Shown piece by piece: positions 6,264-62,813 of a DNA stretch of 64,000 bases. The DNA is taken from NCBI GenBank assembly GCA_003598025.1, contig QZKH01000003.1:42048-106047 (forward strand). The letters run 5' to 3'. The translations under genes were made by a program, and so were the position numbers. The DNA comes from Candidatus Omnitrophota bacterium (GTDB lineage Bacteria > Omnitrophota > Gorgyraeia > Gygaellales > Profunditerraquicolaceae). The number at the start of each line of letters is the position of its first letter. The stretch's first letter is position 1. Below the pieces are notes generated by a model. The model had not been told where the DNA came from and did not search any database. It saw only the letters and a list, made by a program, of their open reading frames with translations.

Positions 6264-6334
6264 ACAAAGTCACCAAGTCACAAGGACACACGTCACAAGT
6301 TTATGTGACGTTGTGACTTTGTGTCATTGTGACA
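6264..6334. repeat. Family-B palindromic repeat element. Left arm of GTCACAAG/GACACA units, right arm of TGTGAC/CTTTGTG units.
   Basis: caaagtcaccaagtcacaaggacacacgtcacaag ttta tgtgacgttgtgactttgtgtcattgtgac. Confidence 0.75.
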
Positions 6335-6359
6335 AACACTATTTTTGTTATATTGTTTC

Positions 6360-6445
6360 GGGCAGGTACCCAAGTGGCCAAAGGGGGCAGACTGTAAATC
6401 TGCTGCACCTGTGCTTCGGGGGTTCGAATCCCTCCCTGCCCACCA
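6360..6445 (+). tRNA. tRNA-Tyr (anticodon GUA). Long variable arm. CCA encoded.
   Basis: Acceptor GGGCAGG/CCTGCCC, anticodon loop CTGTAAA, T-loop TTCGAAT, then ACCA. Confidence 0.85.
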
Positions 6446-6467
6446 GTTTGCCTTATTTTCACTCATT

Positions 6468-6538
6468 GCGGGTGTAGTTCAATGGCAGAACAATAGCCTT
6501 CCAAGCTATATATGTCGGTCCGATTCCGATCACCCGCT
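6468..6538 (+). tRNA. tRNA-Gly (anticodon UCC)
   Basis: Acceptor GCGGGTG/CACCCGC, anticodon stem ATAGC/GCTAT with loop CTTCCAA. 71 nt. Thr-Tyr-Gly order mirrors the thrU-tyrU-glyT cluster known from E. coli. Confidence 0.85.
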
Positions 6539-6620
6539 TTAATTTCAGCTGGGTGGCGGGATAAGCACGCTTGTATGTTGCCCGCTGTTAGAGTTTAAAT
6601 ATTTACAAATGAGGAAATAA

Positions 6621-8117
6621 ATGTTTCCATTCAGCCAAAGAAGAGAAATAAGGGGTATCGATAACCTTTTACCTAAGCTTATCGACCATGCCAATGTTTT
6701 AGTACTTTATTTGGATAATCATGGTTTTATAACCATGACGAATAAGAAAGTCGAAGAGATAACTGGTAAGCGCAGGGAAGATATTATCGGACGCGGCTGG
6801 ATGGATGTGCTGTTTTCAAAAAAGAACCCGACAATTAAAAAACAGATGTTTAAGGCTGTAGTTGATGATTCTATTCTCTATAAACGCTTAAACGGATTTG
6901 AAGGAATAATAGTTGACGCAAATGGCAACGAGCGCCTGATATCCTGGAGTATAAACCCCATACTATCCGAATCTAAGGATCTTGGAGGTGTTTCTTTGTT
7001 GGAAGGAGTTCTGTTTATCGGCAACGATATTACAGAGCTTAGAGAGAAGGGCGCTTCGCTTAAGAAAATCGATGATGCGCTTAAGGATTTGTTTGTCAAC
7101 ATAAAAGAATACGCTTTATATGTTACAAATTTAGACGGTAATATTACGTATTATGGGATAGGCGCCGAAAAGATGTTCGGGTGGCTTAAAAACGAAATCA
7201 TTTTTAAGCACGTTAGTGTTTTGCACCAGCCTGCGACAGCTAAAGAAGTACTTGATAATATTTTCGATAGGGTGAAAAATGCCGGCCAATATGAATCAGA
7301 AATTAATCTGGTAAAAAAGGATAATCAGGAATTTCCGGTTATTCTTACGGTCAGCCAGTTTCTTGATAACGAAGGGAAGTTGATAGGTTTTACCTTTATA
7401 GCTAAAGATATTACAGAAAGAAAGAAGATGGAGTTTCAGATACTTCAGTCTGAAAAACTGGCAGCTATAGGCCAGCTTGCTGCTGGTATGGCTCACGAAA
7501 TCAATAATCCGCTCTTTGTTATTTCCGGACGGCTGGAAATGCTCTTTGATCAGGGTGGATTGGATGAAAAAGTTGCTGAAGATTTGAAGATTATCAACTC
7601 ACAGGCAGACAGGATCAGAAAGCTAGTTGACCGGTTACTGAAGTTTGCTAGGCAAAGCCAATTGAAGCTCGAACCTTTGAATATAAACGATGTTATAGAG
7701 GGAGTTATCCCGTTTTTGTCGTATCAGAAATTGCCTGTTTCTCAGATTAAACTGGTCAAGGAGTTTGATAAAAGCCTGCCAATGGTTAAAGGCGAATTAA
7801 ATCAGCTGCAGGAAGTTTTTATTAACCTTCTCATCAATGGGTATCAGGCTATGTCTGTTAATGGCGGCCAATTGACAGTCAAGACCAGCCTGTACCTTGG
7901 AAGTTTTGTAGAAGTCAGTATTACTGATACCGGCGGAGGCATAAAACCCGAAAACCTTAAAAATATATTTATGCCGTTTTTTTCAACTAAAAAAGACGGT
8001 ACCGGCTTGGGGCTTTCAATCTGCCATAATATTATTCAAAATCACGGCGGGACAATCTCGGTTGAGAATGCACCCGGAAAGGGCACTACTTTTATAGTAA
8101 GGTTGCCAATTATTTAA
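6621..8117 (+). CDS. Cytoplasmic sensor histidine kinase (tandem PAS, HisKA, HATPase_c). No transmembrane segment.
   Basis: H-box LAAIGQLAAGMAHEINNPL. HATPase motifs GGGIKPENL and GTGLGLSICHNI. PAS-like N-terminal regions. Confidence 0.85.
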   Translation: MFPFSQRREIRGIDNLLPKLIDHANVLVLYLDNHGFITMTNKKVEEITGKRREDIIGRGWMDVLFSKKNPTIKKQMFKAVVDDSILYKRLNGFEGIIVDANGNERLISWSINPILSESKDLGGVSLLEGVLFIGNDITELREKGASLKKIDDALKDLFVNIKEYALYVTNLDGNITYYGIGAEKMFGWLKNEIIFKHVSVLHQPATAKEVLDNIFDRVKNAGQYESEINLVKKDNQEFPVILTVSQFLDNEGKLIGFTFIAKDITERKKMEFQILQSEKLAAIGQLAAGMAHEINNPLFVISGRLEMLFDQGGLDEKVAEDLKIINSQADRIRKLVDRLLKFARQSQLKLEPLNINDVIEGVIPFLSYQKLPVSQIKLVKEFDKSLPMVKGELNQLQEVFINLLINGYQAMSVNGGQLTVKTSLYLGSFVEVSITDTGGGIKPENLKNIFMPFFSTKKDGTGLGLSICHNIIQNHGGTISVENAPGKGTTFIVRLPII

Positions 8118-8131
8118 AACAGGAGGAAGTT

Positions 8132-8524
8132 ATGTCTTATAAAGTGCTGGTAGTTGATGACGAAGCTCCGGTAAGAGAATTGTTTCATGATTTGTTGGTA
8201 AAAGAAGGTTGCAATGTAAAAGTTTGTGCATCAGGCGAAGAGGCGTTGGAGCTGGTTAATGGCGAAGATTTTGACGTTATACTCCTGGATATCAAGTTAT
8301 CCGGCATGAATGGGCTTGAGGCTTTAAAAAAGATAAAGGATATAAAGCCAAAAGCCATAGTTATAATGATAACCGGATTTGGCTATGATGAGGAGCTTAT
8401 TAATAAATCAAAACAACTTGGCTGCTCAGGATACATAGGAAAAAATATGCCTATTTCGCAGATAATCAGCAATTTCAAGTTGTTTACAAAGTCTGCAACA
8501 GAGAAATTAAAAAAAGATAATTAA
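8132..8524 (+). CDS. Response regulator, receiver domain only (CheY-like)
   Basis: VLVVDDE, phospho-acceptor D in ILLDIKLSGMNG, conserved K. 130 aa with no output domain. Confidence 0.85.
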   Translation: MSYKVLVVDDEAPVRELFHDLLVKEGCNVKVCASGEEALELVNGEDFDVILLDIKLSGMNGLEALKKIKDIKPKAIVIMITGFGYDEELINKSKQLGCSGYIGKNMPISQIISNFKLFTKSATEKLKKDN

Positions 8525-8536
8525 CCGGAAGATAAA

Positions 8537-9286
8537 ATGACTGATCAATTATTGAGGCCAGTTTATATTGACGCATTTGATTTAGATGATGCCTGGTTCC
8601 AGTGCTTAAGCGCAATCCTGGAAAAAGGGCATGTTTATACGATAACCCGAGGCAGTTATGAAGGCCAGAAAAGGCTTGAATTTGATTTTGCCGTTGTAAG
8701 GGTAAAGAAACCCTCTCATCAGATTATACCGGTTATACCTGAAGGCATGAGTATACCGGCGCCTACAGATATGGATTACATCCAGGGTTATTTAAGCTAT
8801 CTGTTGACCGGGGCTAAAACAGAGACTGAGGATTACACTTATGGAGAACGGCTGGTTGACCCGAAGGTCAAGGTAAAAACCGCAGGAGCCGGCAACAATA
8901 TCTATAATGAAATACCATTGGATGTCAATCAGGTGGATGAAGTGATAAAAATTTATAAGGAAAAAGGACATGGTACTAATCAGGCAATCATGGAAATAGG
9001 GATGCCATCTGATATAAAATTGGTCGATCCGCCTTGTCTTAGGTTGATTGATACTCGTATCAGGTATGGTAAGCTGCATTTTATTTTATATTTCCGTTCC
9101 TGGGATTTATGGGGAGGGTTTCCTTCCAACCTTGGCGGCTTGCAGTTGGTCAAGCAATATATGGCTGATGAAATAGGTGTCGGCGATGGTGAGATTATTG
9201 CTGCGAGTAAAGGCCTGCATCTATATGATTACTCGTGGGATTTAGCTAAAATTAGGACTAATAAAAATAATTTACAGATAGCTTAA
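8537..9286 (+). CDS. thyA: Thymidylate synthase (ThyA) family enzyme, short archaeal-type. A dNMP hydroxymethylase cannot be excluded.
   Basis: ThyA motifs YTYGERL (YGxQWR-like), DPPC (nucleophile Cys), YFRSWD (RSxD), FPSN (Asn). 249 aa. Confidence 0.65.
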   Translation: MTDQLLRPVYIDAFDLDDAWFQCLSAILEKGHVYTITRGSYEGQKRLEFDFAVVRVKKPSHQIIPVIPEGMSIPAPTDMDYIQGYLSYLLTGAKTETEDYTYGERLVDPKVKVKTAGAGNNIYNEIPLDVNQVDEVIKIYKEKGHGTNQAIMEIGMPSDIKLVDPPCLRLIDTRIRYGKLHFILYFRSWDLWGGFPSNLGGLQLVKQYMADEIGVGDGEIIAASKGLHLYDYSWDLAKIRTNKNNLQIA

Positions 9287-9287
9287 T

Positions 9288-9707
9288 ATGGATAAACATC
9301 AGGGTCCGCACAACAAAACAGAGCGCAGGGAATTTTCCAGGCTTGATTATCTTAAGCCGCTTGCTTTCAAGGTATGTAAGCCGGAGATCATAGATAAATT
9401 ATTGGAGGGCTACACCAGCAATATAAGCCAGTCAGGCATATTATGCAACATAAGAGACAATGTGGTTTCGGGAGATATCGTCTGGCTTTCTTTCGACAGG
9501 TCGACTTTAAGTATCTGCGAAGATATAGAGAGGCGGTGTTTTATCTATCAGAACGGCATAATAGGAAAAGTGGTCAGGATCGAACATAAAGAGGACGGTT
9601 CATTTAACGTGGGTTTGAAGTTTGTAACGCGTGAAGAAAGAAATGATACAAACATACATCCAAAGATTTACTTTCTTCAAATGGGTTTGAATAAAAACAA
9701 TGAATAA
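9288..9707 (+). CDS. Stand-alone PilZ-domain protein (putative c-di-GMP receptor)
   Basis: RxxxR-like RREFSR and D/NxSxxG-like NISQSGILC motifs. 139 aa. Overlaps the gpsA start. Confidence 0.6.
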   Translation: MDKHQGPHNKTERREFSRLDYLKPLAFKVCKPEIIDKLLEGYTSNISQSGILCNIRDNVVSGDIVWLSFDRSTLSICEDIERRCFIYQNGIIGKVVRIEHKEDGSFNVGLKFVTREERNDTNIHPKIYFLQMGLNKNNE

Positions 9708-10695: not shown

Positions 10696-10723
10696 GCGCG
10701 GTAATTTACGGGGAGTAGCGCAG

Positions 10724-10875
10724 CTCCGACGCACTCATTTCATTCGCAGTCGGAGTCCCGACCGAGTGTAAACGAGCGTCGGGATTTGGCTTTATCGTCC
10801 GTCATTAATAAAGAAGTTACGGACGATGCCCATTTTGCGCTAACATTTGGCTGAACATATTTGTTAGTTGATATA
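10724..10875 (+). other. 152-bp hairpin-rich segment bounded by a 16-nt direct repeat of the tRNA-Pro 5' end (ACGGGGAGTAGCGCAG at 10708-10723 and 10876-10891). Possible terminators, a small RNA, or a miniature insertion.
   Basis: Three perfect stems: CTCCGAC/GTCGGAG, TCCCGAC/GTCGGGA, ATCGTCCGT/ACGGACGAT. Confidence 0.6.
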
Positions 10876-10876
10876 A

Positions 10877-10953: not shown

Positions 10954-11076
10954 AAAGTTCTCTTGTGATGTTTGAGATGTGAGCTTTGGCCATGAGTAGC
11001 CATATTTGTTGACGATTAGTACAAGAGATTTGAGAAAAAATTTTAATTCGAAATATTATCACGAAAGGAGAAATCT

Positions 11077-11430: not shown

Positions 11431-11432
11431 TT

Positions 11433-20143: not shown

Positions 20144-22945
20144 ATGGCTATAGAGCTTTCAAAGCAGTATAATCCTCACGAAGTTGAGGACAAATGGTAT
20201 TTTGACTGGGAAAAAAACGGGTATTTTAAAACCTCCCCGTCTAAGAACAGAATCCCTTTTTGTATAGTTATCCCTCCGCCTAATGTGACGGGTATTTTGC
20301 ACATGGGGCATGCTTTAAATAATACGATACAAGATATTCTTATCCGGTACCACCGCATGAATGGCGAGGCTGCTCTATGGATGCCGGGCACAGATCATGC
20401 CGGCATTGCTACTCAGAACGTCGTTGAAAAAAGTTTGGCAAGGGAGAATATTAAACGCCAGGATTTAGGCAGGGAAAAGTTTATTGAAAAAGTGTTATTA
20501 TGGAAAGACAAATACGGCTCTACGATAATTCATCAGCTTAAGAAACTGGGTGCTTCCTGTGATTGGTCAAGGGAGCGTTTTACTATGGATGAAGCGTATT
20601 CCAGGGCGGTAAAACATGTATTTGTGCGTTTGTGGGACAAGGGGCTTATTTATCAAGGGGATAAGATAATTAACTGGTGTCCTCGCTGCCAGACAGCTTT
20701 ATCTGATGAAGAAGCACCGCATCATGAACTTGATGGTCATCTTTATTATTTGAAATATCCTTTGAAGGCCGATCCTGATACTTTCATTATTGTGGCTACT
20801 ACCAGGCCGGAAACAATGCTTGGAGATACAGCCGTCGCAGTTAACCCCAGGGATAAAAGATATAAAAAATTCTTGAATAAAATCCTGTTATTGCCTTTGG
20901 TTGGCAGGGAGATAAAAGTAATCGGCGATAGTTCAGTGGATATGAAATTCGGAACCGGTGCTGTAAAAGTTACACCTGCCCATGATCCGAATGACTATAT
21001 AATGGGCAATAGGCATAAACTGAAATTTGTAAATGTTATGTATCCGGATGGCCGGATGAATGAGAATGCCGGAGAGTATAAGGGTATGGATAGGTTTGAG
21101 GCACGGGAAGTGATTATAGAAGACCTCAGAGAAAAAGGATTACTGGATAAAATAGAGCCACATGCGCTTTCTGCCGGGCATTGTTATCGTTGCCACACTA
21201 TAATTGAACCGTATCTTTCAAGGCAATGGTTCGTTAAGATGTCCCCTTTGGCAAAACCGGCAATAGAAGCTGTGAAAAAAGGTAAAATCAAATTCCATCC
21301 TAAAAGATGGACTAAGGTATATCTTAACTGGATGGAAAATATACAGGATTGGTGTATTTCACGGCAGATATGGTGGGGGCATCGCCTGCCGGTATATTAT
21401 TGTAAGGAATGTATAAAGAATGCCGGCGAGTTCACGGTTCATAGTTCACAGTTCACAGGTAAGAATAAAGCCGGTATTATAGTTTCTGAAACTAAGCTGG
21501 ATAAATGTCCTAAGTGCGGTTCATCGGATATACATCAGGAAGAAGATGTTTTAGATACATGGTTTTCTTCCTGGCTATGGCCTTTTGCTACTTTTTATTG
21601 GCCGGATTTTCAAAAGCAATCAGCCATCAGCCATCAGCCATCAGCTTTCAGCTCTCAGCTGGATAGTCTACAGTCTACCGTGCACAGTCCACCGTCCACA
21701 GACAAAGATATTTCTGCCAGGCTCAAGGCGGATTTGGATTATTTTTATCCTACATCCACTCTTGTAACTGCACCTGAGATTATCTTCTTTTGGGTAGCCA
21801 GAATGATTATGGCGGGCATGGAGTTTATGCATAATGTCCCCTTTAAGGATGTTTACATCCATGGCACAGTGCGCGATATAGAAGGCAAGAAAATGTCTAA
21901 ATCCCTGGGTAATATTATAGACCCGCTTGAGATTATAAGCCAGTACGGTGCTGATGCCCTTCGCTTTAGCCTCATATCGATTACTTCTCAGGGGCAGGAT
22001 GTATATCTTTCTAAGGACAGGTTCGAGCAGGGCAGGAATTTCGCGAATAAGCTTTGGAATGCATCGCGTTTTATACTGATGAATATGGAAGAGGCAGACT
22101 CAGGCAAAGTTAACCAAATACGTCAAAACAGCACTAATATCGTAAATAAATGGATATTAAGCAGGTACAATTCCACAATAAAACAGGTTTCATCTTATCT
22201 TAATGCATATAAATTTAATGAAGCGGCAAATGCTATTTACGGTTTCTTCTGGCACGAGTTTTGTGATTGGTATCTTGAGATTATAAAGCCGAATATAAAA
22301 GATGATGAAAGCCGGGTAATTACGCGTATTATCCTTGAGGGTACCCTTAAAATGCTGCATCCTTTCATGCCTTTTATAAGCGAAGAAATATGGCGGATGA
22401 TCCCCGGTAATACTTCTACTATAATGTTTAGCAGCTGGCCGGTTCATTCTGAGAAAGCAATAGACAAAAAGATAGAGGCCCGGGTTAATATGGTCTTTGA
22501 TGTGATTAGCAGCATAAGGAATATGCGTTCCGAGCTTGAAATAGCAGTAACTGATAAAATAAATGTTAAACTTTTTACCGGCAGCAAGCCGAATTTGGAA
22601 ACGCTTAATTTTATGAGCGGAGACATCAAATTAATGTCAAAGCTGGATAATCTCGAGATCTCTAAAGATTATAAGCCTCAGATTAACCAATATGCAAGCG
22701 TCCTAAAGGATATCCATATAATAATCCCATTGTCCGGAGTTATTGATGTAGAGAAATACCTGCTTAAACTGGGTAAGCGTATCCAGGAAGTTTCATCCCA
22801 GATTGAAGCAAAGGGCAGGACATTGGAAAATAAGGATTTTATCGCACGGGCACCAGCAGAAGTCATAAAGAAAGAACAGGATAAATTAGAAGAACTTAAA
22901 GAAACCCTGAACAAACTAAAGGTGGTGAAAGATGGTATTAAATGA
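20144..22945 (+). CDS. valS: Valine--tRNA ligase. Intact ORF that contains two in-frame short-repeat insertions.
   Basis: HMGH, KMSKS, DVLDTWFSS, FFWVARM. C-terminal coiled coil. 933 aa. Confidence 0.9.
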   Translation: MAIELSKQYNPHEVEDKWYFDWEKNGYFKTSPSKNRIPFCIVIPPPNVTGILHMGHALNNTIQDILIRYHRMNGEAALWMPGTDHAGIATQNVVEKSLARENIKRQDLGREKFIEKVLLWKDKYGSTIIHQLKKLGASCDWSRERFTMDEAYSRAVKHVFVRLWDKGLIYQGDKIINWCPRCQTALSDEEAPHHELDGHLYYLKYPLKADPDTFIIVATTRPETMLGDTAVAVNPRDKRYKKFLNKILLLPLVGREIKVIGDSSVDMKFGTGAVKVTPAHDPNDYIMGNRHKLKFVNVMYPDGRMNENAGEYKGMDRFEAREVIIEDLREKGLLDKIEPHALSAGHCYRCHTIIEPYLSRQWFVKMSPLAKPAIEAVKKGKIKFHPKRWTKVYLNWMENIQDWCISRQIWWGHRLPVYYCKECIKNAGEFTVHSSQFTGKNKAGIIVSETKLDKCPKCGSSDIHQEEDVLDTWFSSWLWPFATFYWPDFQKQSAISHQPSAFSSQLDSLQSTVHSPPSTDKDISARLKADLDYFYPTSTLVTAPEIIFFWVARMIMAGMEFMHNVPFKDVYIHGTVRDIEGKKMSKSLGNIIDPLEIISQYGADALRFSLISITSQGQDVYLSKDRFEQGRNFANKLWNASRFILMNMEEADSGKVNQIRQNSTNIVNKWILSRYNSTIKQVSSYLNAYKFNEAANAIYGFFWHEFCDWYLEIIKPNIKDDESRVITRIILEGTLKMLHPFMPFISEEIWRMIPGNTSTIMFSSWPVHSEKAIDKKIEARVNMVFDVISSIRNMRSELEIAVTDKINVKLFTGSKPNLETLNFMSGDIKLMSKLDNLEISKDYKPQINQYASVLKDIHIIIPLSGVIDVEKYLLKLGKRIQEVSSQIEAKGRTLENKDFIARAPAEVIKKEQDKLEELKETLNKLKVVKDGIK
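21428..21459 (+). repeat. Family-A octamer tandem (GTTCACGG GTTCATAG TTCACAG TTCACAGG) lying inside the valS coding sequence
   Basis: gagttcacggttcatagttcacagttcacagg is translated in frame as EFTVHSSQFTG. Confidence 0.8.
21618..21662 (+). repeat. CAGCCAT x3 / CAGCTTTCAGCTCTCAGCTG tandem repeat inside valS. Related in reverse complement to 47042-47074.
   Basis: atcagccatcagccatcagccatcagctttcagctctcagctgg encodes SAISHQPSAFSSQLD. This stretch is absent from canonical ValRS between WP(E/D) and FYPTS. Confidence 0.8.
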
Positions 22946-27380: not shown

Positions 27381-27385
27381 CCGCA

Positions 27386-27467
27386 GGTCCGTTTCTATCA
27401 CTCCTCATAGAAGTGCCCCCATTGGGGGCACTTCTATGGTCAGTCAGAGAAACGGACCTAGAATTTT
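27386..27467 (+). terminator. Nested perfect palindrome (family-C element, full copy) followed by a T7 run. Putative intrinsic terminator after coaX.
   Basis: AGGTCCGTTTCT...AGAAGTGCCCCC ATT GGGGGCACTTCT...AGAAACGGACCT then TTTTTTT. Confidence 0.7.
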
Positions 27468-32494: not shown

Positions 32495-32632
32495 AGATTC
32501 ATAGTTGATTATTCATAGCTGAAGTCACAAAGACACCAGTCACAAAGACACAAAATTATTGATTTTTATTTTAGTTTTGTACGTTTATTTGTGACCTTGT
32601 GACATTGTGGCGTGTGTCCCATATAAACGTAT
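32495..32632. repeat. Composite repeat locus. Short family-A units followed by a family-B palindrome with an AT-rich centre.
   Basis: attcatagttgattattcatag then gtcacaaagacaccagtcacaaagacacaa ... gtgaccttgtgacattgtggcgtgtgtcc. Confidence 0.7.
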
Positions 32633-36108: not shown

Positions 36109-36388
36109 AGTTCATGGTTCATAGTTCACGGTTCACAGAATAGCGTTTACCAGTTGAATAGTTGGTTCGTTGAACCGAAGAAGCCTGGATTAACGAATAA
36201 ACTATTAAACGAATCAACGATTTAACTATGCTTTTCTTGTGATTTTGCGACCTTAGGCCTTCGACACTGCTCAGGCCGAGGGAGTCCTGAGCGTTTTATG
36301 GTGAGTGAAGTCGAACCAAGCCGAAGGATGTCTTTGTGACTAGATACTCTTCATGTCTATGAACTATGCTCTATGAACTGTGAACCAG
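36109..36388. repeat. Large palindromic family-A element. GTTCA-unit arm at 36109-36138 and TGAAC-unit arm at 36356-36388, enclosing about 215 bp of structured sequence.
   Basis: agttcatggttcatagttcacggttcacag ... ctatgaactatgctctatgaactgtgaaccag. The interior contains a family-B unit gtctttgtgac. Confidence 0.65.
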
Positions 36389-47041: not shown

Positions 47042-47185
47042 TGGCTGATAGCTGAGAGCGGATAGCTGAAAGCTGCATTTGTTCACAGTTCATGGTTCAT
47101 AGAAATGACTAGAGTAGTTAGTCACAAAGACACACGACACAAGGACACAAAAATCTTGAGTTCACTATTCACATTTCACGGATTG
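47042..47185. repeat. Composite repeat locus: GGCTGATAGCTGAGAGCGGATAGCTGAAAGCTG (reverse complement of the valS 21618 repeat), then family-A octamers, then the family-B left arm, then TTCAC units
   Basis: ggctgatagctgagagcggatagctgaaagctg catttgttcacagttcatggttcatag ... gtcacaaagacacacgacacaaggacacaa ... gagttcactattcacatttcacgg. Confidence 0.75.
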
Positions 47186-51738: not shown

Positions 51739-51848
51739 GTTCACTGTATTGGTTCATAGTTCATTGTTCATAGTTCATAGAGCTGTCCTTACGTCCATGA
51801 ACTCTGAACTAATCTATGAACTTTGAACCATCAACCATGAACTAATAA
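51739..51848. repeat. Family-A palindromic element filling the whole nfnB-panB spacer
   Basis: GTTCATAGTTCATTGTTCATAGTTCATAGAGCTGTCCTTACGTCCATGAAC. This ~50-nt core is identical to 59374-59423. Confidence 0.8.
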
Positions 51849-51861
51849 TGAGGCAATAGTT

Positions 51862-53419: not shown

Positions 53420-53546
53420 TTCATACATTAGTTCATTGTTCATAGTTAATAGTTTATAGAAATATGCCATCTATCCATGAACTTTGAACTATGATCTATG
53501 AACCAATAAATCCATGAACTTTGAACCTTCAACCGTGAACTAATAT
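53418..53546. repeat. Family-A palindromic element, divergent copy
   Basis: gttcatacattagttcattgttcatagttaatag ... ccatgaactttgaactatgatctatgaacc ... catgaactttgaaccttcaaccgtgaactaat. Confidence 0.75.
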
Positions 53547-53588: not shown

Positions 53589-54896
53589 ATGGCCGATAAT
53601 TTAATGGAAAATATAGTATCTTTATGCAAACGGCGCGGCTTTATCTTCCAATCCTCAGATATCTACGGCGGTTTGGCTAATACCTGGGATTACGGCCCTT
53701 ATGGGGTAGAGTTGAAGAATAACCTTAAACGTGCCTGGTGGAAGTCGGTAGTCTATGATAGGGATGATATCCTTGGGCTGGATGCCTCGATTTTAATGCA
53801 CCCAAGGGTCTGGGAGGCTTCTGGCCATGTGCAGAACTTTTTTGATTTAAAAAGTGATTGCAAGAAGTGCAAAAAGCGCTTTAAATCCGAAGACCTGAAA
53901 GGAAATAAAACTTGCCCGGAATGCGGCGGAGAATTGACAGAAGGCAGGCCGTTTAACCTGATGTTTAAGACTTACCAGGGCCCGGTTGAAGATGCGACTA
54001 ATCTTATTTATCTCAGGCCTGAGACCGCGCAAGGCATGTTCGTAAATTTCTCAAATATAATTGATTCAAAGCACCCTAAGCTTCCTTTTGGTTTGGCTCA
54101 AGTAGGCAAGTCATTCCGTAACGAGATAACCCCCGGTAATTTTACTTTCAGGACAAGAGAATTCGAGCAGATGGAGATCGAGTATTTTGTGAACCCTAAA
54201 GATGCGGATAAGAAATTGGAAGAGTGGATTGAGTACCGCTTTGAATGGTATTTGAACCTGGGTTTAAAAAAAGACAGTTTAAGGAAACGCAAACATGCCG
54301 AAAACGAATTGGCGCATTATGCTAAGGCATGTACCGATATCGAATATAATTTCCCATTTGGCTGGTCAGAACTCGAAGGCGTTGCAAACCGGACGGATTT
54401 TGATCTCAGGCAGCACTCAGAGGCAAGCGGCAAGGATTTAAGGTTCTTTGACGATTCAAGCAAGGAAAGGTTTTTCCCGTATATAATTGAGCCTTCCGGC
54501 GGAGTTGACAGGAGCGTATTGGCATTCTTGGTAGATGCATTTGCGCAGGAAAAGGTCAAGGATGATACAAGGGTTGTCTTAAAGCTGCATAAGGATCTGG
54601 CGCCGGTAAAGGTAGCTGTGCTGCCTTTGCTTAGGAATAAACCGGAGATTGTGGAGTTAGCAAAGAGAATCTCCCGGGAACTTAAGAAAGCATTTGTTAC
54701 TGTTTATGACGACACAGGCGCAATCGGCAAGCTCTACAGAAGGCAGGATGAAGTCGGCACGCTCTATTGTGTCACAATAGACGTCCAGTCCCTTGATGAT
54801 AAACAAGCTACAGTCAGGGACAGAGATACCATGAAGCAGGATAGGGTAGAAATTAATAATTTAAAAAAATATATTTTAGACAAAATATGTTCATGA
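53589..54896 (+). CDS. glyQS: Glycine--tRNA ligase, alpha2 dimeric (class II, eukaryote/archaeal-like) type
   Basis: RRGFIFQSSDIYGGLANTWDYGPYG. Anticodon-binding C-terminus. 435 aa. Confidence 0.85.
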   Translation: MADNLMENIVSLCKRRGFIFQSSDIYGGLANTWDYGPYGVELKNNLKRAWWKSVVYDRDDILGLDASILMHPRVWEASGHVQNFFDLKSDCKKCKKRFKSEDLKGNKTCPECGGELTEGRPFNLMFKTYQGPVEDATNLIYLRPETAQGMFVNFSNIIDSKHPKLPFGLAQVGKSFRNEITPGNFTFRTREFEQMEIEYFVNPKDADKKLEEWIEYRFEWYLNLGLKKDSLRKRKHAENELAHYAKACTDIEYNFPFGWSELEGVANRTDFDLRQHSEASGKDLRFFDDSSKERFFPYIIEPSGGVDRSVLAFLVDAFAQEKVKDDTRVVLKLHKDLAPVKVAVLPLLRNKPEIVELAKRISRELKKAFVTVYDDTGAIGKLYRRQDEVGTLYCVTIDVQSLDDKQATVRDRDTMKQDRVEINNLKKYILDKICS

Positions 54897-54906
54897 TTAT
54901 TAGATG

Positions 54907-54972
54907 GGTCACAAGGACACAAGACACAAGGACACAAAAAACTGTGACTTTGTGACGTGTGACTTTGTGACT
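54907..54972. repeat. Family-B palindromic element
   Basis: gtcacaaggacacaagacacaaggacacaa aaaac tgtgactttgtgacgtgtgactttgtgac. Confidence 0.8.
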
Positions 54973-55016
54973 GCTGATGATTTTGAGCTAAACAAAAAGG
55001 GAGGGTTTTAAAAGCA

Positions 55017-57773
55017 ATGGCAAAGTATGTTTACTTCTTTGGAGGGGGTAAGGCTGACGGCAATGAATCTATGAAGAATCTTTTGGGCGGCAAGGGCGCT
55101 AACCTTGCTGAAATGGCTGGAAGCAAAGATTTGAAGCTCCCTGTTCCCCCGGGATTTACTATTACTACAGATGTTTGCACATATTACTACGAACATAAAA
55201 GGGCTTATCCAAAAGGCTTAAACGAACAGGTAAAAGAAGCCCTTAAGAAAGTGGAGAAATTGATGGGCAGGGAATTCGGCGACTCCGAAAACCCGCTTTT
55301 GGTTTCCGTGCGTTCAGGCGCAAGGAGATCTATGCCAGGGATGATGGAAACAGTCCTTAATGTCGGCTTAACTGAAAAAACAATACCCGGACTCATAAAG
55401 CAGAGCGGCGGTAACAGCCGGTTTGTATATGATGCATACCGTCGTTTGATAATGATGTATTCTGATGTTGTCATGGAGAAGGCAGGCGGCATTGAGCCGA
55501 AAGATTCAGAATCCGGAATACGCAAACAGCTGGAAAAGATAATGTCGGAGTTAAAGAATGTCTTGGGGTATAAAACCGATACAGAGCTTACTTGTGATGA
55601 CTTAAAGAAGCTTTGCAGGTTATTTAAGGAGAAGGTCAAAGAAGTGCTCAAAAAAGAGTTTCCTGATGATCCATATGATCAGTTATGGGGAGGCATAGGA
55701 GCTGTGTTTGCATCGTGGAACGGTAAAAGAGCTATCAGCTATAGAAGGATAGAAAATATTCCTGATGAATGGGGTACAGCAGTAAATGTCCAGACAATGG
55801 TTTTTGGAAATATGGGCAATGATTCAGCAACAGGCGTAGCTTTTACAAGAAATCCCGGTAATGGAGAGGGGCAATTTTACGGTGAGTACCTTATTAATGC
55901 GCAGGGTGAAGATGTCGTCGCCGGTATAAGGACACCAGCGCCGATTAATAGCTATTCTACTTCAGAGCATAATAAAGAGATGCTTACTTTGGAAAAAGCC
56001 ATGCCAAAAATATACAGGCAGCTATTTGATATCCAGCTAAAGCTTGAGAAACATTACCATGATATGCAGGATATTGAGTTTACGATTGAAAAAGGCAGGC
56101 TATTTATGTTGCAGTGCAGGGTCGGCAAACGCAACGGCCCGGCAGCTGTGCGTATGGCTGTTGATATGGTCAAAGAAAAACTTATCAATAAAGAAACAGC
56201 CGCTTTAAGAGTGACTCCTGCCCAACTTGATGAGCTCTTGCATCCTGTAATAGACCCGAAGGCCGAAATAAAAAGCAAGCCGATAGCCAAGGGGTTGCCT
56301 GCAGGTCCGGGCGGTGCTACAGGGCAGATAGTTTTCTCTGCAAATGATGCGGTTGAATGGGCAAAAAAAGGCAAAAAAGTAATATTGGTAAGAGAAGAGA
56401 CTAATCCTGAGGATGTTGAAGGTATGCGTGCTGCTCAGGCTATACTTACTGCAAGAGGCGGCATGACATCGCATGCTGCGTTGGTTGCGCGCGGCTGGGG
56501 CAAATGCTGCATTGTAGGCTGCGGAGGTATCCATATTGAATATAACGAGAAGGAATTACATGCCGATGGCAAAGTATTAAAGGAAGGCGATTGGATTACT
56601 CTTAACGGCACAAAAGGCAATGTTTATGAAGGCCAGCTTCCTATGATGGATGCCGGGGAAGAGAACAAACTGTTAAGCAGTTTCTTGAGACTGTGCAGTT
56701 CTATCAAGAAATTAGGAGTGCGCACTAACGCAGATACCCCTGAAGATGCAAAGAGGGCAAGGCAATTCGGGGCAGAGGGTATTGGATTGTTCAGGACAGA
56801 GCATATGTTTTACGGAAAAGGCTCTGACCAACCGCTATTTCTTTTGCGTAAAATGATTGTTTCTAAGACTGAGGCTGAGAGGAAGAAGGCGCTTGGCGAA
56901 TTGTTCCCTTATGTAAAAAAAGATATTAAAGGGACCCTTGAAGCTATGGACGGTTTTCCTGTGGTCTTCAGGCTGCTTGATCCTCCGTTGCATGAATTTG
57001 TCCCGCGCGAAGAGTCAAAGTTGAATGAGTTAGCAAAAGAATTGAATATCAGCCTTGATGAACTGCGTTCCCGCGCCGAGGCTTTACATGAGTCTAATCC
57101 GATGATGGGGCACCGCGGAGTCCGTTTAGGCGTTACTTATCCTGAAATAAGCTCTATGCAGATAGAAGCTATATTTGAAGCTGCAGCTGAACTTATCCAG
57201 GAAGGCAAAAAACCCTATCCGGAGATAATGATACCGGTTGTCTGCGATGTAAAAGAATTGCAGGACCAGCTTGTAATTGCAAAGACAGTTTACCAGAGTG
57301 TGCTTAAGAAATATAATTTAAAAAATATAAAACATATGTTTGGGACAATGATAGAAGTCCCCCGCGCAACATTGGTTGCTGATAAGCTTGCAAGCGTTGC
57401 CCAATTCTTCTCTTTCGGGACCAACGACCTTACACAGATGGGTTTTGGTTTCTCAAGAGACGATATCGGCGGATTCTTGCCGCATTACCTTAATAAGGGC
57501 ATACTCCCTGAAGACCCGTTTCAGAGTATTGACCAGGAAGGTATTGGCGAGTTGATTAAGATAGGAATTAATAAAGGCCGCTCTGCCTCACCGAAGCTTG
57601 AAGTCGGTATCTGCGGAGAGCATGGAGGAGAGCCTAAATCAGTTGAGTTCTGCCATAAAGTAGGCATGGATTATGTAAGCTGTTCTCCTTTTAGGGTGCC
57701 TATCGCCATACTTGCCGCATCCCAGGCAGAGTTGAAGGATAAGGCTAAGGAGAAGGGGAAGAAGAAAAAGTAA
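55017..57773 (+). CDS. ppdK: Pyruvate, phosphate dikinase
   Basis: PEP-utilising-enzyme phosphohistidine region GGMTSHAALVARGWG and C-terminal TIM barrel. 918 aa. Confidence 0.9.
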   Translation: MAKYVYFFGGGKADGNESMKNLLGGKGANLAEMAGSKDLKLPVPPGFTITTDVCTYYYEHKRAYPKGLNEQVKEALKKVEKLMGREFGDSENPLLVSVRSGARRSMPGMMETVLNVGLTEKTIPGLIKQSGGNSRFVYDAYRRLIMMYSDVVMEKAGGIEPKDSESGIRKQLEKIMSELKNVLGYKTDTELTCDDLKKLCRLFKEKVKEVLKKEFPDDPYDQLWGGIGAVFASWNGKRAISYRRIENIPDEWGTAVNVQTMVFGNMGNDSATGVAFTRNPGNGEGQFYGEYLINAQGEDVVAGIRTPAPINSYSTSEHNKEMLTLEKAMPKIYRQLFDIQLKLEKHYHDMQDIEFTIEKGRLFMLQCRVGKRNGPAAVRMAVDMVKEKLINKETAALRVTPAQLDELLHPVIDPKAEIKSKPIAKGLPAGPGGATGQIVFSANDAVEWAKKGKKVILVREETNPEDVEGMRAAQAILTARGGMTSHAALVARGWGKCCIVGCGGIHIEYNEKELHADGKVLKEGDWITLNGTKGNVYEGQLPMMDAGEENKLLSSFLRLCSSIKKLGVRTNADTPEDAKRARQFGAEGIGLFRTEHMFYGKGSDQPLFLLRKMIVSKTEAERKKALGELFPYVKKDIKGTLEAMDGFPVVFRLLDPPLHEFVPREESKLNELAKELNISLDELRSRAEALHESNPMMGHRGVRLGVTYPEISSMQIEAIFEAAAELIQEGKKPYPEIMIPVVCDVKELQDQLVIAKTVYQSVLKKYNLKNIKHMFGTMIEVPRATLVADKLASVAQFFSFGTNDLTQMGFGFSRDDIGGFLPHYLNKGILPEDPFQSIDQEGIGELIKIGINKGRSASPKLEVGICGEHGGEPKSVEFCHKVGMDYVSCSPFRVPIAILAASQAELKDKAKEKGKKKK

Positions 57774-57775
57774 CC

Positions 57776-57850
57776 TAGTTCATTGTTCGTAGTTCATAGG
57801 GTCGTCCTTAGTCCATGAACCATGAACTAATCTATGGATTATGAACCGAT
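57776..57850. repeat. Family-A palindromic element, upstream flank of tRNA-Arg
   Basis: tagttcattgttcgtagttcatag ggtcgtccttagtc catgaaccatgaactaatctatggattatgaac. Confidence 0.75.
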
Positions 57851-57857
57851 TGATTGC

Positions 57858-57931: not shown

Positions 57932-57937
57932 GTTTAC

Positions 57938-58030
57938 TTAGTTCATAGAGCTGTCCATACGTCCATGAACTATCAACCATGAACCTTGAACTAATCTATA
58001 AACCTTGAACCATCAACCATGAACTAATCT
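57938..58030. repeat. Family-A palindromic element, downstream flank of tRNA-Arg. Ends at the sigma-factor ATG.
   Basis: ttagttcatagagctgtccatacgtccatgaactatcaaccatgaaccttgaactaatctataaaccttgaaccatcaaccatgaactaatct then ATG. Confidence 0.75.
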
Positions 58031-59370: not shown

Positions 59371-59483
59371 GTGTTCATAGTTCATTGTTCATAGTTCATA
59401 GAGCTGTCCTTACGTCCATGAACCTTGAACCATCAATTATGAACTAATCTATGAACCTTGAACTACCAACCATGAACTAATCC
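59371..59483. repeat. Family-A palindromic element. Its last unit supplies the ATG of the next gene.
   Basis: gtgttcatagttcattgttcatagttcatagagctgtccttacgtccatgaaccttgaacc...catgaactaatccATG. Confidence 0.8.
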
Positions 59484-60140
59484 ATGTACAACCTCCATTC
59501 CCACACACTACTAAGCGACGGGGTGCTTCTTCCGTCAGAACTGGCAATGAGGCATTTTTCTCTCGGATATAAAGCCTTAGCCATAACAGACCATGTTGAT
59601 TACAGCAATATTGAGCATGTAACGGATTCCATTATCAGGTTTGTTAAGGCCTGGCCCAAAAACCTGGGTATAAAAGTATTATCGGGCATAGAATTGACAC
59701 ATCTGCCTTTAGAACAGGTAGGTTTATTAACTAAATACGCCAGAAAGAAAGGCATCCAGGTTATAGTGGCGCACGGCCAAACCCCGGCGGAGCCGGTTTT
59801 AAAAGGATTCAACCGCGCGGCAATAGAGGCTGGTATAGACATTCTGGCTCATCCCGGCCAAATCACGGAAGAAGAAGTTCTGCTTGCCAAAAAATTTGGT
59901 GTTTTCCTGGAAATAACCACCAGAAAAGGGCACAAGATAACAAACAGCCACGTGTTAAAAACGGCATTAAATGTCGGCGCAAAAATAATCGTTAATACTG
60001 ATTGCCATGCCCCCGAGGATATATTAGGCCGTGATGCGATGAATGTATTCTATGCTGAAACCGGTATTTCTGAAAATGAAATTAATAAAATAAACTCTGA
60101 TGTAGAAGAACATTTTTTCAATCAAAGGAGGAGGTGCTGA
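59484..60140 (+). CDS. PHP-family metal-dependent phosphoesterase (histidinol-phosphatase-like)
   Basis: MYNLHSHTLLSDG PHP N-terminal HxH motif and internal His/Asp ligands. 218 aa. Confidence 0.65.
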   Translation: MYNLHSHTLLSDGVLLPSELAMRHFSLGYKALAITDHVDYSNIEHVTDSIIRFVKAWPKNLGIKVLSGIELTHLPLEQVGLLTKYARKKGIQVIVAHGQTPAEPVLKGFNRAAIEAGIDILAHPGQITEEEVLLAKKFGVFLEITTRKGHKITNSHVLKTALNVGAKIIVNTDCHAPEDILGRDAMNVFYAETGISENEINKINSDVEEHFFNQRRRC

Positions 60141-60598
60141 TGTTTCTCAGGCTGGGCTTAGCTGTTTTGATTTTGTTTTTATCCTTTACATTACCCGCTT
60201 GTTCAACAATGTCTAAAAGCAGCAATTTAAACGCCGATGGTATGCTGGAATCAGCAGCAACTTTTAAATTTGCCGATATTCCCGTGCCGGCAGGTTTCAA
60301 AATAGTACCGCAAGATTCCTATTCATTTGAATCTGGCGGTATCAGGGTGGGTGTTCTTAGGTATCAGGGTAAGGCTGACCCGGATGTAGTGATGGGTTTT
60401 TATAAAACTCAGATGCCTGCTTTAAACTGGAACCTGTTAAACGTGGTAGAGTTTGGGGATAGGATACTGAACTTTGACCGTCAAAATGAGACTTGTATAG
60501 TTGAGGTCAGGGCAAGGGGAAATAGCATAAAAATTACTGTTTCGCTGGGGCCAAAATCACAGCCTTTGGCGAAGAAATCAAAGCCTCCCTTAAAATAG
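60134..60598 (+). CDS. Hypothetical lipoprotein
   Basis: Signal peptide with lipobox LPACS. 154 aa. Confidence 0.45.
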   Translation: MLMFLRLGLAVLILFLSFTLPACSTMSKSSNLNADGMLESAATFKFADIPVPAGFKIVPQDSYSFESGGIRVGVLRYQGKADPDVVMGFYKTQMPALNWNLLNVVEFGDRILNFDRQNETCIVEVRARGNSIKITVSLGPKSQPLAKKSKPPLK

Positions 60599-60817
60599 GC
60601 AGAAAATTCAAAAAACACTTGACAAATAAGGGGTTGTGTGTTAAAAAAAATGAAATGGTTATACCACTGGAGATGACTTTAATCCAGGGCGAAACGGAGG
60701 TGAGAAAAAATAGCCTGAAGTCAGATCAAATTCCGGTGATATACTATAGAAGAAATTATCTAGGAACAACCTAATACCCTAGTTGATATATTTATTTTTT
60801 ATTAAAGGAGGAACAAA

Positions 60818-62263
60818 ATGAGTAAACGCTTAGTACTGGTTCTTGCGCTTGCATTTGTTTTCGGCGTTACTTTTTGTGCATACGCAGAAGTTCAGAATGT
60901 CAAAGTCAGCGGTGACCTTACCGTAATGGGTATATCCCGTAATGACCTGGACTTAACGAAAACAACTGGTGGCGGCGCAACAAGCAATGATGAACAGAAC
61001 AATTTTTCATCGATTGCAAGAGTAAGAATTGATGCCGACCTCACAGACAATGTAATGGCGACAATAAGGTTGATCAATGAGAGAGATTGGGACGGTGAAG
61101 ATACTACAACAACCGAAGCCAATAATATTGAAATTGATTTAGCCTATGCTACGATGAAGGAATTCTTGTATTCACCTTTATCGCTTACAATAGGCCGCCA
61201 GGAATTAAGGTATGGTAACGCATTAGTAGTTGGCGATCCTGATACCAACAACCTTGCCGCTGCATCAACATTGACCGCAGGCGATTTAAGTTTAAGAAAA
61301 TCGTTCGATGCAATTAAGGCAGTGTTGAATTATGATCCATTAACCGTTGATTTAGTTTATGCAAAGATTGACGAGAACACGATTAGAGGCGCAAATTCAA
61401 ACGATGATATTGACCTCTATGGTATTAATGCAAATTACGCATTAAACAAAGATACCACATTGGAAGGTTATATATTCTCCAAGCAAACCGGAAGCAATGC
61501 CACAAAATTCACTGCAGCTCAGAGAACTACAGGCGTCGCACTTGCTGATCCCGGCACAAAAGAAAATGATATCCATACCGTTGGTGTCAGGGTTGCTAAT
61601 ACATCTGTGAAGAATTTGATGGCACAATTAGAAGCAGCATTCCAGTTTGGTAAATACAACCCAGGTTATGACATCAATTCACAGAATGCAGCAGTTGAAG
61701 GCGACAGAAGAGCATATGCATTACAGGCTATAGCACACTATAACCTTATGGATATTGTCCCTTCAAGCTTAAGCAAGTATAAGCCGCAAGTAATGGGAAC
61801 CTATACATATTTGTCCGGTGAAAAGAACACAAGGACATCCGGAACTTATCATGGATGGGATCCAATGTTCGAAGACCAGACACCAGGCAGCCTTATTAAT
61901 GCCATATTTGGTTATTCTAACAGCCATACATTGGCTTTGACCGGTAAGGTAAATCCAATGGAAGATGTCGGCTTTAGAGTTGATTATGCAGCAGTCTGGT
62001 TAGATAAAAAATTCCCTGATACAGGCACTGCTACAGCCGGTTTCAACACCGTAAATATGAGAGGTGTTGCAGGCGCAAGCACATATACAATGACAGGAAA
62101 GAGATTTTTAGGCCAGGAATTAGATGCAACCTTGACCTATGATTATACCGAAGATGTCCAGTTTGGGCTTCGCAGCGGTATTTTCTTCCCTGGCGATGCA
62201 CTTCAGGGCAACAATGACAGGAACGCAACAGAGTTAATCGGTACAATGAAAGTTACTTTCTAA
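60818..62263 (+). CDS. Outer-membrane beta-barrel protein (putative porin / alginate-export-like)
   Basis: Signal peptide ending AYA. Alternating amphipathic beta strands. C-terminal ...KVTF with terminal Phe. Confidence 0.6.
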   Translation: MSKRLVLVLALAFVFGVTFCAYAEVQNVKVSGDLTVMGISRNDLDLTKTTGGGATSNDEQNNFSSIARVRIDADLTDNVMATIRLINERDWDGEDTTTTEANNIEIDLAYATMKEFLYSPLSLTIGRQELRYGNALVVGDPDTNNLAAASTLTAGDLSLRKSFDAIKAVLNYDPLTVDLVYAKIDENTIRGANSNDDIDLYGINANYALNKDTTLEGYIFSKQTGSNATKFTAAQRTTGVALADPGTKENDIHTVGVRVANTSVKNLMAQLEAAFQFGKYNPGYDINSQNAAVEGDRRAYALQAIAHYNLMDIVPSSLSKYKPQVMGTYTYLSGEKNTRTSGTYHGWDPMFEDQTPGSLINAIFGYSNSHTLALTGKVNPMEDVGFRVDYAAVWLDKKFPDTGTATAGFNTVNMRGVAGASTYTMTGKRFLGQELDATLTYDYTEDVQFGLRSGIFFPGDALQGNNDRNATELIGTMKVTF

Positions 62264-62284
62264 GTATCGTTATGTAGTCATAAA

Positions 62285-62317
62285 CCCTCGGGAGAGCATA
62301 TCTCCCGGGGGTTTTTT
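62285..62317 (+). terminator. Rho-independent terminator after the outer-membrane protein gene
   Basis: CCCTCGGGAGAGCATATCTCCCGGGGG then TTTTTT. Confidence 0.85.
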
Positions 62318-62324
62318 ATTACCA

Positions 62325-62355
62325 CGTCACAAAGTCACACGTCACAAAGTCACAA
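62325..62355. repeat. Family-B left arm, immediately upstream of the four-helix-bundle gene
   Basis: cgtcacaaagtcacacgtcacaaagtcacaa. Confidence 0.8.
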
Positions 62356-62357
62356 TT

Positions 62358-62711
62358 ATGGATAAAGGATACAAAAAACTTTTAGTTTGGCAGAAGGCAG
62401 ATGAATTAGCTTTACAAATTTATCTTGAGACAAAGCGATTCCCTAAAGATGAAATATATGGTGTTACTTCCCAATTAAGAAGAGCGGCTATCTCTGTCCC
62501 CACCAATATCGCTGAAGGCTCAGGTAGGCAAAACAAATCAGAATCTAAACAATTCATAAATATTTCTTTAGGCTCTTTAGCCGAAACCGAGTATTTATTA
62601 GAATTCTGTTTCCGTCTTAAATACTTAGATGAAGAAAATTTTAATAGGTTAGAAGAATTACGGAATGATGTTGGCGCCTTACTTTGGAATCTTTATAAAA
62701 GCTTTACGTAA
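62358..62711 (+). CDS. Four-helix-bundle protein of the 23S rRNA intervening-sequence protein family
   Basis: 117 aa. Typical LLVWQKA...L...Y..T..FPK.E.YGLTSQLRRAA.S...NIAEG N-terminal pattern of that family. Confidence 0.7.
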   Translation: MDKGYKKLLVWQKADELALQIYLETKRFPKDEIYGVTSQLRRAAISVPTNIAEGSGRQNKSESKQFINISLGSLAETEYLLEFCFRLKYLDEENFNRLEELRNDVGALLWNLYKSFT

Positions 62712-62781
62712 AAGTAAAATAAGTTGTTTCTTTTTGCTTTTGTGACCAGCTGCTTTTGAATAGTCAATCGTTTTCTTAACT

Positions 62782-62813
62782 TTTGTGTCCTTGTGACCTT
62801 GTGTCCTTGTGAC
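62782..62813. repeat. Family-B right arm (inverted partner of 62325-62355), downstream of the four-helix-bundle gene
   Basis: tttgtgtccttgtgaccttgtgtccttgtgac. Confidence 0.8.

Follow-up and report, generated by a model that had tools for sequence, protein, structure and literature searches.

The 64,000-nt window analysed here, a stretch of contig QZKH01000003.1 from a Candidatus Omnitrophota bacterium, carries all of its genes on the + strand, and the spacers between these co-directional genes or tRNAs hold every copy of a repeat family, Family B, whose arms are built from tandem GWCACAAR units with a period of 8 or 7 nt (spacing 8, 7, 8 nt), about 30 nt per arm, one arm amounting to roughly two 15-nt super-units. 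An earlier note on this DNA, made from the letters alone, had listed six copies of the family (6264-6334, 32523-32620, 47119-47151, 54907-54972, 62325-62355 and 62782-62813), and arrays of such units are indeed present at all six places, far above chance. The core GWCACAARGWCACA, with at most one mismatch, has 19 matches in the window, every one within these six sites, compared with a mean of 0.07 in the shuffled window, and none of 100 shuffles reached 19. Similarly, GTCACAA was observed 23 times with 3.9 expected, and a looser array detector returned 10 arrays as opposed to 0.2 in shuffles. The count of six copies has to be revised, in that the arrays at 62326-62355 and 62782-62813 are the left and right arms of a single 489-nt element that encloses an open reading frame (ORF), and not separate copies. 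The inventory of the window is one complete cassette plus four gene-less arm copies, namely three hairpins and one solo arm.

The complete cassette (left arm, four-helix-bundle ORF and right arm; 62325-62813, + strand) lies between the terminator of a porin gene and the start codon of a GH57 gene (62829). Its left, or 5', arm (62326-62355, + strand; GTCACAAA GTCACAC GTCACAAA GTCACAA) ends 2 nt before the ATG of an ORF of 117 aa (62358-62711, + strand), and its right, or 3', arm (62782-62813, + strand; TTTTGTGTC CTTGTGAC CTTGTGTC CTTGTGAC) is found 70 nt past the ORF stop and 15 nt ahead of the GH57 ATG. In the minimum-energy fold, these two arms pair with each other. The intrinsic terminator of the porin gene (62282-62314, + strand) is a landmark of the insertion site, the same terminator being found in five cassette-free relatives (L206-L210); it is the only terminator-like site in 62200-62900 and falls outside the arms. 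No sigma-70-like promoter was found ahead of the ORF. The 117-aa protein is a confident member of PF05635 (23S_rRNA_IVP; E 1.3e-37, 128.7 bits for a cut-off of 33.8) and of TIGR02436, "four helix bundle protein" (E 2.8e-34, 117.6 bits, cut-off 24), and it resembles PDB 2gsc (XCC0516; E 5e-18), an entry that holds five chains; PADLOC gave no match to it. A protein identical to it is annotated in a Candidatus Omnitrophota metagenome-assembled genome, and the window itself corresponds to JGI contig Ga0394679_005064. Avd is the nucleic-acid-handling partner of the reverse transcriptases of diversity-generating retroelements. The cassette protein is like Avd in its four-helix-bundle fold or superfamily, with weak matches that stay under the model cut-offs (NF033474, E 9e-8, 32.4 bits, cut-off 80; PF22296, E 3e-4, 21.7 bits, cut-off 40), but differs in its setting, as neither the window nor the related loci showed a reverse transcriptase, a template repeat or a variable repeat beside the gene.

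The three gene-less hairpins, to which no strand is assigned, share the same arm architecture. The first (6264-6334; arms 6264-6299 and 6304-6333, 4-nt loop) begins 2 nt past a duplicated tRNA-Thr 3' end, stops 26 nt short of tRNA-Tyr, and folds at -32.2 kcal/mol (z -4.2). The second (32523-32620; arms 32524-32553 and 32588-32618, 34-nt AT-rich loop) has a degenerate right arm (32588-32618), is bordered by the guaA stop (32484) on one side and by the likely dnaE start (ATG 32655) on the other, and folds at -27.4 kcal/mol (z -2.4). The third (54907-54972; arms 54908-54937 and 54943-54971, 5-nt loop), separated from the glyS stop by 11 nt and from the ppdK ATG by 45 nt, is the best-preserved gene-less copy and folds at -37.9 kcal/mol (z -8.6). 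The fourth copy, at 47119-47151 on the + strand, consists of four units of a left arm that has no partner arm, as the earlier note had described it, and shows no significant fold (z -0.3); it is located 18 nt 3' of an arm of a second repeat family (Family A, 47081-47100), either ahead of apbE or inside its 5' end. Of the genes that the earlier note had put downstream of the copies, the histidine kinase gene does not directly follow the 6264 copy, which is flanked by the duplicated tRNA-Thr 3' end and tRNA-Tyr. An intrinsic-terminator function was considered and rejected for these very stable hairpins: the third is without a T-tract, and 54700-55100 contains no terminator-like site. At the Rfam gathering threshold, the window contains five tRNAs, no other RNA family and no rRNA, and a Family B hairpin returned only sub-threshold, miRNA-like noise.

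To place the cassette in a broader context, we examined 80 metagenome loci (L122-L201) coding for relatives 62-81% identical to the window protein, a sample from a clade in which more than 2,000 relatives were found. Enough flanking sequence was available at 72 of these loci, and the same procedure shifted by 560 nt provided decoys. Inverted arms of the same unit type bracketed the ORF in 71 of the 72 evaluable relatives, with a median gapped stem score of 41, compared to a decoy median of 18, 95th percentile of 24.7 and maximum of 27. Arms had a median length of 35 nt and a period of 8 in 101 of 142 cases and of 7 in 38, so that 139 of the 142 had one or the other. Measured as medians, 18 nt separated the 5' arm from the ATG, and 4 nt separated the stop from the 3' arm. 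Unit sequences change across the clade, with GTCACAAG/GACACAAG in the closest relatives and GTCACCAG, GAGCACAAG, GAGCACCAG and GAGCGCATG in more distant ones, and in all of those relatives the 3' arm carries the complement matching the unit type of the 5' arm. Across loci, the two arms co-vary (CACC/GGTG, rho 0.81; TCAC/GTGA, rho 0.84; GCAC/GTGC, rho 0.91), and loci with more similar proteins also have more similar arms (Mantel r 0.48, a value reached by 0 of 999 permutations). The protein is under purifying selection, with a dN/dS of about 0.11-0.23 among relatives, which argues that it is functional.

Two more complete cassettes were identified in genome assemblies (L100 and L005), and the layout extends to distant PF05635 genes with other units: GTCACAGAG in a Bacteroidota metagenome-assembled genome (MAG; L016), TTAGCAA heptamers in L027, and in L050 AAGTTCAT/AAGTTATA arms that resemble Family A of the window. 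The arms are thus conserved, co-evolving flanks of PF05635 genes. In a Bacteroidales MAG (L072, 1129-1602), inverted arms of the GACACAAAG type surround an ORF for a GxxExxY protein (TIGR04256, E 1.8e-37; PD-(D/E)XK-like), so that the small genes carried by this arm system belong to two or more unrelated families.

The earlier note had also proposed comparing orthologous spacers in related genomes, and this comparison found copies to be variably present at two sites. At the first, relatives of the window's glycyl-tRNA synthetase (81-84% identity; L202-L205) retain the gene order panB-hyp-glyS-ppdK-sigma70, and the glyS-ppdK spacer, which holds the third Family B hairpin in the window, is empty in L202 and L203 (23 nt), contains five GTTAATG heptamers in L204, and a GTTCATR hairpin in L205; the window's Family A hairpins are likewise missing or elsewhere placed in these four relatives. 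At the second, the cassette lies between porin terminator and GH57 start in the window and in seven metagenome loci (L122, L129, L133, L137, L153/154, L158), and is missing, with the porin terminator kept, in five GH57 relatives (L206-L210; 64-68% identity). The spacer is plain, 16-26 nt long, in L207, L209 and L210, and holds a solo array of CCTAAGAC-type units in L206 and of AAGTTAAA-type units in L208. Cassette-bearing and cassette-free lineages are interleaved in a neighbor-joining tree of GH57, a tree that carries no support values. The proteins adjoining the cassette at this site are down to 60-70% identical between loci, yet the arms are still recognizable, which means that the arms are maintained and not decaying. 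Copies thus appear to have been gained and lost over evolutionary time, a behavior that fits selfish or miniature mobile DNA better than it fits conserved regulatory sites. Two side observations concern the same spacers. Solo arrays stand directly before start codons in L206 (2403-2500; CCTAAGAC/CTAACAC), L208 (2407-2500; AAGTTAAA) and L204 (4309-4375; GTTAATG), and the glyS-ppdK and porin-GH57 spacers seem to have been repeatedly colonized by different unit families. Separately, GH57 in L207, L209 and L210 begins 16-26 nt past the T-tract of the porin terminator without an obvious Shine-Dalgarno sequence; its expression presumably relies on read-through of the terminator or on an mRNA with a short leader or none.

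These comparisons bear directly on regulatory interpretations of the repeats. A CRP-type operator consists of inverted half-sites, TGTGA-N6-TCACA, in a 22-bp palindrome. The units do contain the pentamer of this half-site (TGTGA/TCACA), on which the earlier note had based its suggestion of dispersed, high-affinity arrays for one CRP/FNR-family global regulator. Yet even a search that allowed one mismatch found no TGTGA-N6-TCACA site in the window. Successive units run head to tail as direct repeats with a period of 7-8 nt, and where two arms join, the order is TCACA...TGTGA, the reverse of a CRP site. Related cassettes carry GTCACCAG and GAGCACAAG, with GGTGA or GTGC in place of TGTGA. Since the glyS-ppdK spacer is empty or filled by GTTCATR or GTTAATG units in close relatives, this is not a conserved regulator site. 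A phmmer search with Escherichia coli CRP found no homologue among the window ORFs, a weak test given that it covered 64 kb. Hence, we rejected this explanation, to which we attach almost no probability. A broader possibility is that the repeats are host-selected cis-regulatory elements acting on translation or mRNA stability of downstream genes, consistent with arrays that often end a few nucleotides before a start codon, as they do 2 nt before the four-helix-bundle ATG, directly before the GH57 ATG in L206 and L208, ahead of apbE for the arm at 47119, and in a previously described set of repeats (PMC4679880). We give this little credence, since the orthologous spacer is empty or holds an unrelated unit family in close relatives, the flanked genes are unrelated housekeeping genes, and one related arm sits in frame inside valS.

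Gene-less arrays are also found around cassettes and far beyond the window. The outer flanks of the 80 cassette loci (80 kb, cassettes masked) contained 23 further Family-B-type arrays, complete gene-less hairpins among them, and the 61 kb from L202-L210, nine loci without any PF05635 gene, five of them the cassette-free GH57 loci, contained none. When genome assemblies were scanned with a 27-28-nt pattern of four units, at least 120 loci in at least 10 phyla were recovered, so the family is not confined to the window, as it would have been under the refuting condition named in the earlier note, and is present both in other genomes and in metagenome loci. Among the matches listed are Omnitrophota, Planctomycetota, Bacteroidota, Acidobacteriota, Chloroflexota, Cyanobacteriota and Proteobacteria, several genomes having 4-7 loci each. 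A partner arm accompanied 56 of the 129 arrays in these listed matches, the remainder being solo, and the loops of the paired arrays measured 0-60 nt (n=28), 61-250 nt (n=22) or more (n=6). A close PF05635 gene was located within 20 nt of the matched array in 2 of the 120 matches listed (a third locus, L005, holds a separate armed gene), so that most of these arrays are gene-less. Carriage by phages was discounted, as 2.9 million viral contigs yielded only 3 pattern matches and 1 relative of the protein. Some head-to-tail octamer arrays are very long, at 15-23 units (L030 17-140, L038 674-860, L116 2768-2890), in some cases at contig ends; this suggests slippage-driven expansion, and such arrays are probably a cause of assembly breaks.

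Local, microsatellite-like slippage combined with inverted duplication, without mobility or any link to a gene, could in principle produce repeats of this kind, and arrays do differ greatly in length, those of L030 and L038 reaching 17-23 units, just as heptamer copy number differs among strains of Coxiella (PMC4990558). We nevertheless regard this as highly improbable for Family B as a whole, because one unit sequence is found at many unrelated sites of one genome and across many phyla, the association with one gene clade is near-obligate, and matching arrays cluster in cassette-bearing contigs only.

The closest known counterpart of the cassette is the ORF-bearing intervening sequence (IVS) of 23S rRNA genes, as found in Coxiella, Leptospira and the Brucella/Xanthomonas-type S23p systems. 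In Coxiella burnetii, the 23S rRNA IVS measures 428-444 nt, encodes a now decaying S23p (PF05635) ORF with a poor ribosome-binding site, and has three or four tandem heptamers (GACAGAT), varying in number by strain, immediately 5' of the ATG (PMC4990558). The window element is alike in its PF05635 ORF, its size (~430-490 nt across the two), its complementary termini, able to form a stem of about 28-30 bp around the ORF, and its poor or absent Shine-Dalgarno sequence (PMC4990558), as well as in its 3-4 tandem repeats of 7-8 nt immediately 5' of the ATG, the window units ending 2 nt before it. It is different in lying outside rRNA (IVSs occupy helix 25 or 45 of 23S), between porin and GH57 genes, in having tandem units in both arms together with dispersed gene-less arm copies, and in its ORF being under purifying selection while that of Coxiella decays. 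By analogy, the cassette is best filed as an element that works like an S23p-type IVS, though strictly not a member of that class, as it does not lie in rRNA. IVSs were suggested to be mobile elements, with the ORF serving mobility, by Ralph and McClelland in 1993, as cited in PMC4990558. Elsewhere, PF05635 genes have been reported in rRNA insertions of bacteria of the candidate phyla radiation, and within a CRISPR operon, where one separates cmr3 from cmr2 (PMC3936711). In the literature searched, we found no description of free-standing PF05635 genes with tandem-unit arms, or of gene-less copies of such arms.

On balance, we consider it probable, by a modest degree, that Family B represents the arms of an IVS-type selfish cassette together with its miniature, gene-less derivatives. 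This interpretation builds on the observed arm-gene association, arm co-variation, arm-protein co-divergence, purifying selection, and presence or absence at orthologous sites, and describes a cassette in which a promoter-less PF05635/S23p Avd-like gene has about four GWCACAAR units on its 5' side and the same units, inverted, on its 3' side. By extension from the 23S IVSs of Coxiella, Leptospira and Salmonella, the elements would be transcribed within host transcripts, the two arms would pair into a long imperfect stem, and RNase III would cut that stem, a step that has been demonstrated for IVSs and is extrapolated from them to the window element. Cutting would insulate the insert from the host transcript and free the ORF RNA, such that the insert might be tolerable in any transcript, and the gene-less hairpins would then act as passenger processing or stability sites.

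Several results weigh against this interpretation. The strong porin terminator just 5' of the cassette limits read-through transcription into it. A sense-strand wobble test for an RNA stem counted 62 G.U pairs, 90 A.C pairs and 281 other mismatches, i.e. no excess of G.U, and the variable second base of the unit pairs in 78% of cases with 72% expected by chance, a marginal excess; taken together, these two results mean that the complementarity could simply stem from one motif building both arms. Tandem periodicity is no requirement for a stem cut by RNase III and is left unexplained by the stem model, as are the solo arms frequent among the matches listed, which cannot form stems. Neither a transposase nor a target-site duplication was found: there is no visible direct repeat at the edges of any copy, and sequence divergence at the empty sites in relatives blurs the exact junctions. 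An origin of the gene-less hairpins by internal deletion of a cassette receives no support from the loop of the second hairpin (32523), whose local alignment to the cassette interior scored 18 for a shuffle mean of 17.5, with no ORF remnant. Finally, residence at the porin-GH57 site has lasted while the neighboring proteins diverged to 60-70% identity, and such persistence would suit a domesticated gene better than an active parasite.

The persistence of the 7-8-nt period would also be explained by a different model, namely that the units are recognition motifs for the four-helix-bundle oligomer itself or for another factor. In its main form, the arms would be binding arrays for an oligomer of the four-helix-bundle protein, with one unit of 7-8 nt, as DNA or RNA, per ring subunit. 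The protein would then autoregulate, package or mobilize its own cassette, and the gene-less copies would provide extra sites; "arrays for one regulator" would be right in this sense, but with another protein and another logic. In every clade, this period is kept while the unit sequence shifts with the protein clade, and heptamers are found in Coxiella as well. The CAC core is also kept, and the second base is nearly free and often mismatched between arms, a pattern that fits motif recognition better than pairing. Structures of homologues have five chains per entry and S23p homologues are described as pentameric toroids (PMC4990558), the family is related to Avd, and gene-less arrays of matching type cluster near cassettes. 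On the other hand, arm-protein co-divergence is also expected from simple linkage, arms usually have 3-4 units and not 5, and a spacing of 8 bp sets successive sites on different faces of B-DNA. The similar arms around the unrelated GxxExxY protein in L072 also show that arms do not need the four-helix-bundle protein. We thus view binding arrays as an unlikely explanation, albeit one that deserves to be taken seriously.

The earlier note's other suggestion, that Family B constitutes a family of miniature inverted-repeat transposable elements (MITEs), comes close as a description: the elements have terminal inverted repeats, are small, gene-less and without a transposase of their own, are dispersed in many copies (five sites in 64 kb), show insertion polymorphism at the glyS-ppdK and porin-GH57 spacers, and share their arms with an ORF-bearing element. 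It fails on the identity of that ORF, as elements with these ends encode a four-helix-bundle protein, or once GxxExxY, and no transposase was seen. Classical MITEs could still be moved by a transposase encoded elsewhere in the genome, with the four-helix-bundle gene as passenger cargo, and inverted arms, small size, dispersal, variable presence at orthologous spacers, and a second cargo (GxxExxY) between similar arms are all compatible with this. Yet no target-site duplication is visible at any copy and no transposase was seen beside any of about 200 loci, arms of tandem units and abundant solo arms are atypical of MITEs, and an almost obligate arm-protein linkage (71 of 72) is a poor fit to occasional cargo, so that we see only a slim chance for this scenario.

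Other repeat classes resemble the selfish cassette and its gene-less derivatives in part. The repetitive extragenic palindromic (REP) sequences, bacterial interspersed mosaic elements and REPINs of proteobacteria, and Correia elements, are, like Family B, short, abundant, imperfect palindromes in co-directional spacers; they are transcribed with their neighbors, as Family B would be. A REPIN consists of two inverted REPs as one long hairpin and is associated with a gene that occurs in a single copy and has these repeats on both sides, and the Correia elements of Neisseria are cut by RNase III and have a TA duplication. Unlike REPs and REPINs, the gene flanked in the window is PF05635 and not a REP-associated tyrosine (Y1) transposase (RAYT), and the units are without GTAG; unlike Correia elements, Family B copies have no TA duplication. 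Another resemblance is to the short tandemly repeated repetitive (STRR) sequences of heterocystous cyanobacteria, reportedly described by Mazel et al. in 1990, and to the TAACTGA heptamers. The latter are intergenic repeats of Beggiatoaceae, Cyanobacteria and Bacteroidetes, patchy across phyla and often found just before a start codon, for which a role in translation or mRNA stability was proposed in Beggiatoaceae (PMC4679880). Similarities include 2-6 or more head-to-tail units of 7 nt in intergenic position, several unit families per genome, a patchy cross-phylum spread suggesting horizontal transfer, and relatives with shorter, repeat-free spacers (PMC4679880). Family B falls within this class by description, with its period of 7-8, a second family (GTTCATA) in the same window, and at least 120 loci in at least 10 phyla. 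The published descriptions are of direct repeats with essentially no inverted partners and no linked gene family, whereas Family B mainly forms inverted pairs tied to PF05635 genes, with a period of 8/7 that is not strictly 7.

Family A, the second repeat family of the window, is built like Family B: its arms, each of four GTTCATA/GTTCACR heptamers, are arranged as inverted pairs. It is found at 6029-6095, 36109-36379, 47081-47100, 51747-51847, 53427-53544, ~57775-57857, ~57935-58030 and 59373-59477. Its presence, too, varies between orthologous spacers, and the AAGTTCAT-type arms on a distant PF05635 gene in L050 suggest that it probably belongs to another cassette lineage. A single Family A arm (21430-21456; GTTCACG GTTCATA GTTCACA GTTCACA) lies in frame inside valS (20144-22945), where it encodes ...EFTVHSSQFT... 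between two Cys-x-x-Cys motifs, the repeat being apparently tolerated as a peptide insert in an essential valyl-tRNA synthetase. At 36109-36379, Family A arms surround a 231-nt non-coding insert with a fold z of -3.6 relative to shuffles and no Rfam match; it may represent a decayed gene or else an RNA, as a third type of cargo. At 5870-5900, the final 29 nt of tRNA-Thr (gggtcgggggttcgattcctctcgccggctt) have a second copy 362 nt downstream (6232-6262), and the roughly 330 nt enclosed contain GC-rich stems and a Family A hairpin. The arrangement resembles an attL/attR scar left by a tRNA-integrating element that was very small or has been largely deleted. A 37-nt inverted repeat at 27385-27459, 86% complementary with a 1-nt loop (AGGTCCGTTTCTATCACTCC.../...GAGAAACGGACCT), belongs to neither family.

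PF05635/TIGR02436 proteins are among the commonest bacterial small proteins of unknown function, and heptamer and octamer repeats (STRR, TAACTGA) have, to our knowledge, been described since 1990 without explanation. The results obtained here link this unexplained class of short tandem repeats to that very common protein family. They also have practical consequences: the hairpins break metagenome assemblies, many related contigs being 1-3 kb long, can be mistaken for regulator sites, as they were in this window, and can sit in frame inside essential genes such as valS. A bolder and rather unlikely extension is that an S23p/Avd-like oligomer specifically reads the units flanking its own gene and thereby preserves or propagates the arms, either by itself or with the help of a recruited host reverse transcriptase or nuclease. 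If true, this would represent a new class of protein-plus-repeat selfish system, and would account for ORF-bearing rRNA IVSs, STRR/TAACTGA heptamers, and hairpin families A and B, and each repeat family would have a separate PF05635 (or GxxExxY) gene lineage as its counterpart. Overall, the gene flanks, the IVS-like layout and the spreading gene-less copies bring three formerly unconnected curiosities together in one testable system.

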